Positions 6,001 through 12,000 of a stretch of 13,508 bases of DNA are shown piece after piece. Within the stretch, counting starts at the first letter, position 1, and every line of letters begins with the position of its first letter. This DNA is from a virus (Duplodnaviria > Heunggongvirae > Uroviricota > Caudoviricetes): IMG/VR virus record IMGVR_UViG_2537562192_000015. The stretch is one strand, 5' to 3'. The position numbers are program-made.

Positions 6001-9000
6001 AAACAGTGGCAGGAGCAGGACGGAAAACTTGCCGGAGATAAAACACCGCCTGTCGTGCTGGCTGATGAGCAACTTAAAGATATTGGCAATCTGCAAATTG
6101 TGCCCGACGGGCGCAAATCAGCGCGGATATACAAGGCCGGACACCTTGATCAGGTGATGGTCAAAGGCATAGGTCAGAAGCTGGCGGCGGCAGGCGTACA
6201 GGACGCAGACTATTACCCCGAAGGTATGCACCATAACGAGCGGCAGAACTGGCGTAACTATCTGGAGACTGAGCGCAAAAACATTTCTGACGGACTGGTT
6301 ATTGAGCTGCCTGTAAAGAAAAAAACATCAGAACAATCAGAGGATGAATTAAAACCCCGCGTTGAATGCCGTCCTGATGGCGTTTACTGGGTTACGCCAA
6401 AGGTTGATAAGCAATCCGGTGAAATTATCCGCCCGTGTGAGTGGATTGGTGACCGTATGCGAACCGTGGGGATCGGCCATGATGGCTGCGATGGGTATCT
6501 GATAATCGAACTTGAACCAGAGGGAATGGAAAAAATTATTTATGAGGCCATGCCCCGCAATGAAATCGGCCTCCCTTCTGGATGGTCGCGATTGCGTGGG
6601 CGTGGGGTGGCAGTGACAACCAGTCAGAAACTTTTAAACAAACTTGCGGAATACCTTCAGCGTGAAGGAGAGCGGACACAGTGGGAGGTCACCTCAACGG
6701 CGGGGTGGCATTGTGGCGCTTATGTCATGCCGGATGGTGAGATTATTGGCGTACCAGAAAGGCCCGTTGCCTTCTGTGGTGGTTCGGCGGCGATTAAAGG
6801 TTATGTGGTTCGGGGTACGGCTGATGAGTGGCGCGACAATGTTGCCTCACTGATGCGCGGTAATCACTCAATGATGCTTGGAGTGCTGGTCGGGCTTGCC
6901 GCCCCCCTGAACTCCCTTGTTGGTGGCGGCTGTTTTGGTGTTCATCTTTTTGCGCAGTCGTCGGCAGGAAAAACCACGACAGTGGAAGCAGCAACAAGTC
7001 TTTACGGTGATCCTGAAGTGCTGAAACTTTCATGGGATGCAACCAGATACGGCCTCACGGTGGAAGCTGCGGCACGTAATGATGGCTTTATCCCCATTGA
7101 TGAAATCGGTCAGGGCGGACGGATTAACGATATTGCGCAGTCAGCCTACAGCCTGTTTAACGGTGTGGGGCGTATTCAGGGGCGTAAGGATGGCGGTAAC
7201 CGTGCGGTGATACGCTGGAGAATCGCGGCCCTGAGCACGGGAGAGGAGGATTTCGAAACCTTCCTGATTAAGGGCGGTGTGACGCCTAAAGCTGGTCAAC
7301 TGGTGCGCCTGTTAAGTGTGCCGTTTATTGATACAACGGTTTTTAACGGATATGACGATGGTGATCAGCACGCCAGAGCAATAAAACGGTTTGCATCGAA
7401 TTATTGCGGAGCAGCGGGTCGTGAGTGGATCGGCTGGTTGTCAGCCAACAAAGAACTTGCGGTCAGTGTGGTTAACGAAAAAGAAAACATCTGGCTTAGT
7501 CGTCTTCCTGAAAATGCTTCCCCCCAGGTGAAACGCGTGGCATCCCGTTTTGCAATGCTGGATGCAGCCGGAGAACTGGCAACGGGAATAACCGGATGGA
7601 CAACGGGAGAAAGCCATGCAGCCACACAGCGCGCTTTTGATGACTGGTTGCAGGATTTTGGACTGGATAACAGGGAAAAATATCAGGTTATCAGTCGCGC
7701 CCGCGATTTCATTCAGCGTCACGCCCTTAGCCGTTTTCAGCCGTACACATACGGCAGACAGAACGGAGATATGGACGTGAATTACGGAGCGAGAATCACC
7801 AGTCTGGCGGGGTATCTGGTGAGAGGGCGACGTGATGACGGATTACCGGAATACCACATCATACCGTCAGTATTTGATGAAGAAATCCTGTGTGGCATTA
7901 ACCGAAATTTTGGATGCCAGGCACTGAAAGAAGCCGGAATTCTGATTCATGCAGGTGATAAAAACTGGACGACCAAAACGATAAAGGTTAACGGAATACA
8001 GCAACGCTTTATTGTGCTTCTTGACCAGTCGGAGGAGTAAAAATCGTATTCTCGTGTACGCGTAAAAAAGTGGGCGGATAAGCGGATATGGTTAATAAAG
8101 TGCTTATATATCAGAGCATTATATTGTATTTCCGTATCCACCCTTATCCGCATATATCCGCCCTGTTATGAGAGGAAATTGATAAATATCAATCTTGTGC
8201 AAAAAACACACAAAGTCGTATCCGCCATTATCTGTTTGATTCTGAAGAGAAAAAACATACAAGGCGGATATGGGTGGATACGAAAAATCACGTAACACAA
8301 TGAATGCAAACAATATTTTTCTTCATATCCGCTTATCCGCCCAAAAAGTGTCTTTATAAGTGAATATGTGAAGTTAAAAAACAGAGAGCAAAGCGGGAGA
8401 TTAATGCCATTTCCCCGCAGTAACTACAGAGAGAATCATGTAATGAGCAAAGAAAAAATGAAAATCAGGCAGCACGGCAGGACAAAGATACTTAAAGGTG
8501 AATTTATGAACTCTGACATTAAAACGCTGAGCATATCAGGCGCCCTTCCTGGCTGGTGGGCGAGGTTCAAAGATGACGACGGTACGGAATGGTATAGCCC
8601 AATTGCTGCATGGGCGCTTTGTGAGGTCGCCCCCTGTAATACGGGATGTGCGTATCAGGAGATACTACCCGTCTTGCCAGGTGAAGCAGGCATGGAGCCG
8701 CATTATTCTGATTGTGGGGCGTGCGAGTGCCTTTATCTGCCAGATAAGAAGTTTGTTCACTGCGGTGAGTCATGGGTATTTGCCTGGTATCCGGTTAACG
8801 ACGGCAGCAATAGCGGTACTCTGGAGTAAATCATGAAAGTAAGCCACAAAAAGACAGATCACCGCGCCATTGACATTACAGAGCACTGGCTGAGGGTGGC
8901 GATAAAAATCATTGACCGCAACACGGGAGAAGGATACGCGAAGGAACATCCCGAACTGATAAGCGCATTCATGACCACGGCGGCGGCAAACTTTGCCACG

Positions 9001-12000
9001 CTGACAGAACGGGAGATTGCTGAAGCGGAACAGGTAGCAACCATCAACGTTAAAACCGGAGAGGTGGAATCATGACAGCACAGATTGCAGCTTACGGGCG
9101 GCTGGTGGACGACCCGCAGGAAAAACAGACCAGCAAAGGAACACCAATGGCACTGGCGCGTATGGCGGTATCTTTGCCATGCAGTCAGGCACAGGACGGA
9201 CAGGCGACGTTATGGCTATCAGTCCTGGCATTTGGTAAGCAAGCCGACGCGCTGGCGAGACATGAAAAAGGCGACCTTATCAGCGTGGCGGGTAACATGC
9301 AGATCAGCCAGTGGACCGGACAGAACGGAGAAATACGGCAGGGCTGGCAGGTTATCGCTGACAGCGTAATCAGTGCCCGTTCGGCGCGTCCTGGCGGGAA
9401 GCGGGGGCAACAGGGGAAGGCGACCGAAGCACTGGAAAGAGCAAAACGACAGACCGGACAGCAGGGAAATCAGCCACCAGCGGGAGGTGATGACCCGTTC
9501 TCTGACGATATTCCGTTCTGAATGACAGGAGCACAACATGAACCAGCAGACCACACAACAGGACCAGACCACACGTAAACCATCACGGCGCATACCGTGG
9601 CAGCACATGACAAAAGAGCAACGAAAAAACCACAGACGAATAAATCGAATTGCGGAATACTGGCCTGAGCTGTTTGGGACAGAGAATATAAAACCCCTGA
9701 AGGCTGGCATAATACGTGATGTGCTTGAGGACGCTAAATCACGGGAGTTGCCACTTGCTACAGGTGTATTACGCGGCGCATTAACCTCACACCTTCACAC
9801 GACGCGATACCTTAAGGCGATTATTGCTGGTGGCCCACGGTACGACCTGAACGGGCAACCTTGCGGCGAAGTCACGGAGAAAGAGAAAGCAGCAGCCAGC
9901 GAACAACTGATGTGGAGGCTGGAGCAGATAAAACAGCAAAACATCCAGTGGCAGGATACGGGAGGTGGTGAGAGTGATAACAGACAGCGTGGCACAGAAA
10001 CTTGAGGAGCGTGGTTTATGGCGACGTGCGGCGACCCGATGCTCTGACGTCCTTCTTCACGCAGAAACGGACAGGGAGCGCGAGGAAGCTGCCAGACGTC
10101 GGGCGATATGCATCATTAAATCCCGTCGTATGCCTGAGCAGTTCGTCACCTTTGGCGATGTGAAAAAGGCCGCAGACAGAACGCTGAAAGAGATGGGGAT
10201 TAATCCGCAGGATGAATGGAAAAATTACAGCTTCAGTGATGCAGGCGACGATTTAGCGCTATCGTGATACGTATCTCATCGCCGTATTTGCTCAATTATC
10301 GCGATTCGCTATAATCACCACCGAAAGGCCGTTGATGGTGTTCTCCGCAGGCAACGGGAGCCTCGCCGAATGAAGCCAGCCAGCGGCTTTTCGGCACTCA
10401 TTTTGATGTGTACTTGTCACACACATCGGGATGAGTGAACGACGAAAACATCACGGTGATTTCGTCATGCCGCGATAAGAATGCGCCTCTTTGGGCAACT
10501 GGAGCCCTCTGTACAGCGGGTTATTGCGGCAAAGTTGTGATAAAAACGCGCCTCTTTGAGCAATTGAAGCTCACTGTAAAGCGGCTTATCACAGCAGGCT
10601 GTAACGGGCGTTCATCTTCTGGCAACTGAAGCCACCTGTACAGAGACCCGTTACGGCTGACCCTGAAGGATTTCGCCCCGTGCAATTGAAGCACCCAGCG
10701 GAGTTATTCAGGGTTTTTTATTGCCCGTCCACCAGCACCACATCTGTAGCATTGATGCGTATACATTCGCCGTCAATTGCACCGTTCCGGCCCTCACCGT
10801 CACGCACCACAACAGAATGACCAGGCAGGCCATAACGCGCCACCTTTCGACGAACACCATCACCTGTTCCCTCACGCCGCTCATACACGTTAACCCGCTC
10901 CAGAAGACCGTCACGGACCATCGCTTCAAGTGTGCGCCTTGTTGATTCGAGCTGATATCGGTTGTTGTGTGAATCTATGCCATACAGCAGGTAAGCCACA
11001 CCGGAGACATCAAACGGCGGGTTACCAATTTCACCTCTGACCCACGACAGATTGTCAGGAGTGAAGTAACTGAGGATCTCTTTTTTGTATTGCGTCAGTC
11101 TCATAGTGACCTTTCTTGTTGTAGGATGAATCCCTCATACAATAAGCCATAAGGCAAATTTTGAAAGGACAGAATCGGCGGGGTACAGATGATACGTGAT
11201 GACAAGGCTGAAGCGCTGGAGAATAGCGGCCTCTGGCGGCGTGCTGCTGAACGCTGGGGAGAATTGTTCAGACAGGCAAAAAGTGATGAAGAGAGGCACT
11301 ATATTACCCAACGAAGGGCACAATGTACGGCAAAAGCCACCAGACCAAAAACAACAGAGTGGGGGCATGTATGCGCCGTCAGGGCAGCAGCGACCAGAAC
11401 GCTTAAAGATATGGGGATTGACCAGAAAAAAGAAGATCCTTTACGGGGCACGAAGTACAGGGGTGAAACAGGGCGAAGAGACGGAAGTTAATATGGACAC
11501 AATAACTGATAAAAAAGCCGAACAACTGGAATCTCAGGGACTATGGCGAAGAGCCGCCGCTCGTTGGCTTGACGTAATGAAAGAGGCCCACACCGATCCG
11601 CAGCGAGAGCATATAGCCAGACGGCGGGAAATATGCCTTGCGAACTTCAGGATGCTGTAAATAAGACTGTTGACGATATGGGAATCAGACGGGATCGGCG
11701 ACATTACGGGTTATGGAAATAACAGCCAGGTAAATTGGTGAATATACGGCAGGCTGCAATCAGAGCCGAACATAGCGGCCTCCGTCACCATTATCAGACA
11801 GTAGCGGTAGTCCTTCCATCACAGCAAAATGCTACCCACTTCACAGCCCCTTAGAAGCCTCTTCGATGGGGTGAAAAATCCCTGAAAAAATGCGCAAAAA
11901 ACTGCGCAAATCGATCATAAAACCGATCACAAAATCGATCACACAGACCAGCAGAGCAAAGCCAGATATGACGTGGCTTGTAGGGGGAAAAGCCACCGGA

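Follow-up and report, generated by a model that had tools for sequence, protein, structure and literature searches.

A satellite-borne SSB and two small conserved genes follow the putative replication origin of a PICI-type island in Escherichia coli

We analysed a stretch of 13,508 nucleotides (IMG/VR virus record IMGVR_UViG_2537562192_000015; the whole stretch is called the window here), which covers nearly all of a phage satellite of about 14.5 kb in Escherichia coli, an island of the Gram-negative phage-inducible chromosomal island (PICI) type. Our subject is a set of three small genes that lies head to tail behind its putative replication origin: two open reading frames, ORF1 and ORF2, and a gene for an SSB (single-stranded DNA-binding protein). 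A reading made from the sequence alone had called these genes a translationally coupled operon, and we checked its three ORFs against the window sequence and the RefSeq coding sequences (CDSs) of identical island copies. The coordinates and lengths proved exact, and RefSeq annotates the same three CDSs. Features of the locus are collected in Table 1; loci fetched for comparison carry L numbers.

Table 1. Features of the window, with positions counted from its first nucleotide (aa, amino acids; nt, nucleotides)
Feature	Position	Strand	Evidence and remarks
C4 antisense RNA (P4 CI-type immunity RNA)	4893-4980	+	72.9 bits for Rfam RF01695 (gathering score 45)
DUF927 primase-helicase (replicase), 712 aa	5902-8040	+	PF06048 at 3.5e-40; phrog_1139 'DNA primase' at 3.9e-94; RefSeq DUF927 protein
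Putative origin	8065-8345	.	TATCCGCC-type iterons in two inverted sets, with an AT-rich centre between them
ORF1, 107 aa	8506-8829	+	phrog_27268, orphan family; acidic (pI 4.3), Trp-rich, predicted all-beta, seven Cys
ORF2, 80 aa	8833-9075	+	phrog_1231 at 1.6e-46; orphan family
Satellite-lineage SSB, 149 aa	9072-9521	+	OB fold, linker, DDIPF tip
ProQ/FinO-family gene	9538-10005	+	PF04352 at 3.6e-23; 16-nt spacer after the SSB gene
PerC-family regulator, distal gene of the cluster	9974-10267	+	PF06069 at 2.4e-25; overlaps the end of ProQ; RefSeq CDS at L001 15935-16228
Conserved gene, 128 aa	10718-11104	minus	
Q-type antiterminator	12838-13236		PF06530 at 2.5e-50

The three genes are co-directional, closely packed and directly downstream of the origin, as had been proposed. 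A 3-nt spacer separates ORF1 from ORF2 (TAA-atc-ATG), the ORF2 stop codon overlaps the SSB start codon (ATGA), and Shine-Dalgarno-like motifs (AAGGTG, GGAG and GGAGAGGTGG) lie 4-6 nt 5' of the respective starts. A scan of 7900-10500 gave no terminator-like or sigma-70-like site, and the cluster extends past the SSB gene into the ProQ/FinO and PerC genes without a detectable terminator, so that it holds more than three genes. In related loci ProQ recurs either after the SSB gene or directly after ORF1, and in most related islands PerC comes after SSB or ProQ. Conservation of the small ORFs in related elements, on which the sequence-only reading depended, was found: homologues occur across genera, and the ratio of nonsynonymous to synonymous substitution (dN/dS) is below 1, at 0.30-0.40 for ORF1 and 0.18-0.66 for ORF2, with 0.12-0.36 for the SSB.

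The SSB passed both family cut-offs, scoring 55.4 bits against PF00436 (cut-off 26; 7e-15) and 63.6 bits against TIGR00621 (cut-off 53.95; 2.7e-17), and matched 24 SSB chains in the PDB at E<=1e-3. By our reading of the HMMER and BLASTP alignments, the core of the oligonucleotide/oligosaccharide-binding (OB) fold ends near residue 105. A Gly/Gln/Pro-rich segment follows up to the tip, with a linker of about 35-40 aa, and the protein ends in ...GGDDPFSDDIPF; the canonical DDIPF tail and short linker claimed for it are thus both borne out. Of 5426 complete E. coli genomes, 1784 (~33%) carry this SSB lineage, which occurs at 2326 places and in up to six copies per genome. All phage SSBs in INPHARED (50,697 records) are less than 30% identical to it, and the closest SSBs in a plasmid collection, among those inspected, lie within PICI-like elements of the same layout. 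SSB has been filed with the primase and the origin (ori) in the 'Replication' zone of Gram-negative PICIs (PMC10111431), and a conserved putative gene for single-stranded DNA (ssDNA) binding was noted earlier in OI-51, CFT073 and ED1a (PMC3378721). Within the satellite, the SSB gene belongs to the replication zone, and its product is predicted to bind ssDNA.

At 90% identity the ORF2 family falls into 165 clusters, the majority of them from E. coli, Shigella, Citrobacter and E. albertii; residues 16-77 form a strongly conserved core. Its DNA occurs in 1613 of the 5426 E. coli genomes, at 2144 places. The SSB gene follows an ORF2 homologue with a 4-nt overlap in eight of ten inspected loci (L003, L005, L006, L012, L014, L034, L035 and L036), and this overlap is kept whether the replicase is a RepA helicase, a DUF5906 primase or a DUF927 protein; in the remaining two (L031 and L026), ORF1 is placed between ORF2 and SSB. 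With a Zn-primase-helicase counted as well, the overlapping ORF2-SSB pair is found behind four types of replicase. No Pfam, NCBIfam or PADLOC family matched ORF1 or ORF2 when every member of their alignments was scanned at E<=5. Comparison with hhalign gave no relationship between ORF2 and the unrelated 126-aa and 257-aa proteins found in its place elsewhere, and a literature search by locus tag for the function of the O157 homologues gave nothing. ORF2 is the dominant occupant of the slot between origin and SSB in E. coli, and ORF1, found in 28 of the 5426 genomes, is the rarer one. We also considered whether ORF2 might be the PICI regulator RgdR (ECs1581), defined as a 99-aa basic protein of OI-51 with an RGD motif at residues 20-22. 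This identity was rejected: in OI-51, the 99-aa ORF that bears the RGD motif proved to be the DUF4222 gene 5' of the replicase (L006 8056-8355), and ORF1 and ORF2 are both acidic to neutral and have no RGD motif.

The ORF1 family appeared as five clusters in a word-indexed search and as 31 representatives at 50% identity in an exhaustive one. Scanning genome contigs with an 11-sequence alignment yielded homologues of 45-48% identity in Providencia, Morganella, Xenorhabdus and Photorhabdus, and others lie on 12 IMG/VR contigs. The family is acidic (median pI 4.4, net charge -9), and its hallmark is aromatic, PA.PGWWA.F.DD.G..WY.PVAAWAL, with W17 and W36 invariant and G16, P32, A37 and P55 nearly so. 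An AlphaFold model built on a 24-sequence alignment is all-beta with nine strands (pLDDT 91.6, pTM 0.80); a run on three sequences (pLDDT 53) was discarded. Foldseek searches with this model gave nothing significant in the PDB (best E 0.54) or in BFVD (best E 0.037, an unnamed 95-aa phage protein). ORF1 is an uncharacterised family whose predicted fold is unmatched. An ORF1 profile searched against PDB sequences did return transcription activator-like (TAL) effectors at about 1e-19, which we rejected as a summed-repeat artefact of an 'LPVL..G' motif, no single stretch having passed; the long multi-stretch matches P0135 and P0147 of the exhaustive search are explained by the same TAL-like repeat. 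Residues 44-68 of ORF1 (window 8635-8709; ILPVLPGEAGMEPH) resemble the 'LLPVLCQAHG' of TAL-effector repeats.

To compare the neighbourhoods, we mapped the window proteins and alternative replicases onto the fetched loci and added remote members, at 23-33% identity, by contig. An ORF1-family gene lies just 3' of the replicase and an intergenic region of about 300-530 bp in all 22 loci with readable context, members of only 23-30% identity included, with one small gene intervening before ORF1 in two of them, and its slot is constant across DUF927, RepA, DUF5906 and Zn-ribbon/Toprim/DUF927 replicases. What comes after ORF1 varies: ORF2 and then SSB in the window, L003 and L014; SSB directly in L004, L016-L018, L024 and L030; a 126-aa protein and then SSB in L015 (3861-4223); ProQ in L007, L010 and L019-L023; and other genes in L008, L009 and L025. 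The order ORF2-ORF1-SSB is found in the capsid-forming PICI L031 (1568-2541) and the metagenomic element L026 (5716-6506), where ORF1 is 30-39% identical. In L016-L018 (6001-6320; protein P0005) a deletion has joined ORF1, without loss of frame, to the ~15 codons at the end of ORF2 (...EQVTTINVKTGEQTA), and these fusion variants keep the end of ORF2 and its junction with the SSB start. A tblastn search of the INPHARED phage records with ORF1, ORF2 and two distant ORF1 relatives gave no match. Judged by these sequence comparisons, the cassette is satellite-specific.

The intergenic region upstream of ORF1 has the features of an iteron origin. Its repeats, direct and inverted, include one perfectly matched inverted pair of 20 nt (8071-8090 / 8324-8343), and G+C falls to 0.38 in 8001-8500 from about 0.5 elsewhere. 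The same iteron layout has been published for origins of Gram-negative PICIs, and in the prototypical member EcCICFT073 the primase and ori alone were enough for plasmid maintenance (both from PMC6092414). On balance, we lean towards a view of the three genes as the distal part of the replication zone, namely a satellite-owned SSB with optional accessory partners, and we hold the SSB part of this view with much higher confidence than that for ORF1 and ORF2. For these two, we favour accessory, non-essential partners in replication or modulation of the replisome. Even where their order is shuffled and their sequences have diverged deeply, the three families recur together; taken with their absence from bona fide phage genomes, this argues for a functional link to the satellite replication module. 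We infer that the cluster is transcribed as one operon and that ORF1 and ORF2 are linked, physically or functionally, to the SSB or to replication. Two roles had been guessed for ORF1 from its position, replication and helper interference. The first gains support from synteny only, as ORF1 homologues are confined to the slot that lies after the replicase and origin and ahead of SSB, ProQ or PerC; the second gains none, given the lack of a PADLOC match and the behaviour of EcCICFT073, whose genes after ori were cloned individually and of which only c1503 (RppA) blocked lambda (PMC6739421).

A mechanism can be proposed on this basis. After induction, a rightward AlpA-dependent transcript would pass over the replicase gene, then the origin, and on into ORF1-ORF2-SSB-ProQ-PerC. 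The AT-rich centre of the iteron origin would be opened by the DUF927 primase-helicase and the island SSB would coat the unwound strands, its DDIPF tip engaging host proteins that normally dock on SSB, and the satellite would thereby have a private SSB supply during competition with its helper phage. ORF2 would be made in fixed proportion to the SSB through the ATGA overlap and would most likely act with it. ORF1, an optional acidic, Trp-rich beta protein, would most likely bind not metal or DNA but a replisome protein, be it from the island, the host or the helper. A more specific version, which we regard as unlikely though conceivable, makes ORF1 and ORF2 satellite-specific replisome adaptors that bind the island SSB, the replicase or a protein of the host SSB interactome, and that divert host machinery to the satellite origin or shield that machinery from the helper phage. 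If this were true, PICI replication would have an accessory layer that has so far gone unrecognised and that about one in three E. coli genomes carries.

Several observations weigh against the favoured view, or against an essential role of these genes in replication. ORF1 occurs in islands without an SSB (L007-L010, L019-L023 and L025) and cannot therefore be a strict SSB partner. In some islands ORF1 is alone in the slot upstream of SSB, and the slot itself is variable, unrelated proteins of 257 aa (L002, 9414-10187) or 126 aa (L013, 6624-7004) preceding the SSB in other islands; these too overlap the SSB start, and the occupant in L002 had no Pfam or PADLOC match when the proteins of L002 and the window were scanned. 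No similarity of ORF1 or ORF2 to any replication protein was found in sequence or, for the modelled ORF1, in fold. Finally, since primase and ori suffice in EcCICFT073, ORF2 and SSB are not essential for replication there.

These observations bear on the alternative that the two small genes are cargo at a hot spot of variable content, coding for small inhibitors of host defences, of the helper phage or of host physiology that ride a strong induced operon, with the SSB alone serving replication. We regard this as possible but not probable. It would explain why unrelated genes fill the slot between ori and SSB in different islands, why ORF1 is rare and is lost or fused in relatives, and why EcCICFT073 replicates with primase and ori only. 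ORF1 is also small and strongly acidic, as are many phage-encoded protein inhibitors. However, ORF1, ORF2 and SSB remain together through shuffling of their order and divergence to 30% identity, and ORF2, found at about 92% of SSB sites and joined to the SSB start, is atypical of free-floating cargo. EcCICFT073, which carries ORF2 and SSB homologues, also speaks against it, as its singly cloned post-ori genes other than c1503 left lambda unblocked. The lack of a PADLOC match points the same way, although the PADLOC library holds defence rather than anti-defence proteins.

The sequence-only reading had seen in the cysteines of ORF1 a hint of a zinc-binding fold, and one could imagine a Cys-cluster protein whose metal site recognises DNA or protein near the origin. 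We find this very unlikely. ORF1 does have seven cysteines in 107 residues (39, 44, 48, 70, 73, 75 and 86), grouped in two clusters with one residue apart; the earlier description of the C-x2-C-x-C cluster and of the single C86 holds, and the first cluster is C-x4-C-x3-C, not C-x3-C-x3-C. Across 38 unique family members, C39 is kept in 33, C73 in 20 and C75 in 16, followed by H66 (12), C86 (5), C70 (2) and C48 (2), and C44 is outside the six commonest residues at its column. The window copy and its two closest cluster representatives all have C39, H66, C73 and C75, which would suit a metal site. Yet no set of four ligands is conserved in the family: members carry 0-7 cysteines (median ~3, several with 0-2), the window copy being the richest, and what is invariant is aromatic or structural (G16, W17, W36, P32 and P55). 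C39 being the one well-kept position, the family as a whole lacks a conserved metal site. Profile scans matched ORF1 to no zinc-finger or zinc-ribbon family, and structure prediction, which had been suggested as a check, gave the confident all-beta model without metal and without a match to a zinc fold. ORF1 is probably not a zinc protein, although the seven-Cys variant of the window may bind metal in a lineage-specific or adventitious way. The last alternative, that the small ORFs are annotation artefacts in a non-coding spacer between origin and ssb, would fit their lack of Pfam or NCBIfam families and their annotation only as hypothetical proteins, but is already refuted by the pattern of conservation, with dN/dS below 1 and protein conservation reaching Providencia, Morganella, Xenorhabdus and Photorhabdus, alongside PHROG matches, good Shine-Dalgarno sites and a high-confidence fold prediction for ORF1.

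The view of the cassette as the distal part of a replication zone matters for what is known of these satellites. PICIs are widespread in E. coli, and the understanding of how they replicate stops at replicase plus ori. Within the module, the satellite-specific SSB, nearly always translationally joined to one conserved protein of 80 aa, is a regular component that has gone unstudied, and a rarer family of beta proteins that lack any known fold keeps, across genera, to the same slot. If SSB or the host replisome were modulated by ORF1 and ORF2, this would account for the way in which satellites compete with helpers for replication resources. For annotation, the gain is the removal of an unsupported 'zinc protein' label and the separation of the cassette genes from RgdR. 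The finding is a PICI replication cassette of known type, no surprise but worth modest follow-up.

The window element is a Gram-negative PICI-type phage satellite of E. coli at tRNA-Gly. This identity follows from its integrase, AlpA, Rha, DUF927, ProQ and PerC matches, together with the C4 RNA and the tRNA-Gly insertion. The tRNA-Gly adjoins the insertion, beside the ETT2 secretion locus, and identical island copies occur in several Shiga-toxigenic E. coli (STEC) genomes. From the left, the island carries the integrase, a 239-aa hypothetical protein, AlpA, a Rha-like regulator, decayed ant and icd genes and the C4 RNA; then three small ORFs, the DUF927 primase-helicase, the origin, ORF1-ORF2-SSB, ProQ/FinO and PerC; and finally the 128-aa gene on the opposite strand, two further PerC paralogues and the Q-type antiterminator. 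Integrase, AlpA, Rha, DUF927 and ori are in the order expected of a Gram-negative PICI, the size lies within the ~10-18 kb of this group, and the RefSeq annotation of the island has no lysis or tail genes. A DUF4222 gene lies directly 5' of the replicase in relatives (L002 6571-6869, L004 7566-7865 and the L006 copy above), and tblastn found no match to it in the window (including 5725-5902) or in L001. The DUF4222-type gene of O157 OI-51 is the published LEE regulator RgdR (PMC3378721), and the window thus does without a gene said to occur in all analysed E. coli PICIs.

Further observations concern the flanks of the cassette. In the RefSeq annotation, antA/antB and two Icd-like genes are partial pseudogenes (window 3279-5000), and given these Bro-zone pseudogenes, this island copy may be defective. 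A 488-aa ORF in the same interval gives, as an impression only, an unnatural-looking sequence past its antirepressor-like N-terminal part. The C4 RNA sits in this decayed Bro/icd region and connects the island to P4-like immunity control; it is also a candidate target of the nearby ProQ/FinO RNA chaperone gene, which is common in these satellites, including the capsid-forming L035.

How does the island compare with known systems? In the four-zone scheme of Gram-negative PICIs (PMC10111431), its Integration, Bro and Replication zones fit, whereas the usual Late zone (capsid, TerS/Rpp and packaging redirection) is absent. No capsid or terminase homologue was found in the window (10300-13508) or in L001 (16200-20500), and the place of the Late zone holds three PerC genes, the 128-aa hypothetical protein and the Q antiterminator; relatives L003, L005, L006, L012, L031 and L035 have capsid or packaging genes. 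Rpp genes are likewise absent from this place, and the Q antiterminator may act on helper late genes. With P4-like satellites the island shares the CI/C4-type immunity RNA, and the RefSeq annotation shows no P4-type sid, psu or delta, genes at which no search was aimed.

The island SSB has in common with the chromosomal SSB of E. coli a single OB domain and an acidic DDIPF tip, and it keeps the equivalents of the aromatic residues W54, F60 and W88. In contrast, the two OB domains are no more than 26% identical, the equivalents of W40 and H55 are lost, and the island protein has 149 aa rather than 178, with a linker shorter by about 20 aa; the chromosomal SSB is a host housekeeping gene, whereas the island SSB is carried by a mobile element. 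Against the plasmid-type SSB model NF010292 it scored 21 bits (cut-off 265). The leading regions of conjugative plasmids (ssb-psiB-ardA) likewise place a mobile-element SSB beside small acidic anti-host proteins, a parallel that serves as a lead only; no psiB or ardA homologues were detected.

Operon 1 of the Staphylococcus aureus pathogenicity islands (SaPIs), which serves interference and packaging, resembles the cassette in comprising the first genes after a satellite ori, co-directional with the replicase (comparison in PMC6739421). No sequence relationship between the two was detected, and SaPI operon 1 interferes, whereas the post-ori genes of EcCICFT073 other than RppA showed no interference. 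EcCICFT073 itself is a much nearer parallel, although its replicase is a DNA primase family protein rather than DUF927. The window differs from it in having an extra ORF1 ahead of ORF2 and ProQ/FinO after SSB, and in having only PerC paralogues and the Q antiterminator downstream in place of capsid and packaging genes. ORF2 and SSB are thus already present in the best-studied E. coli PICI, where the function of neither appears to have been studied. EcCICFT073 and OI-51/CP-933C, with its 'ssDNA' gene, share with the window the order of replicase, iteron ori, small ORF, SSB and PerC, and in EcCICFT073 the same ATGA overlap joins an ORF2 that is 87% identical and an SSB that is 77% identical to the window copies.

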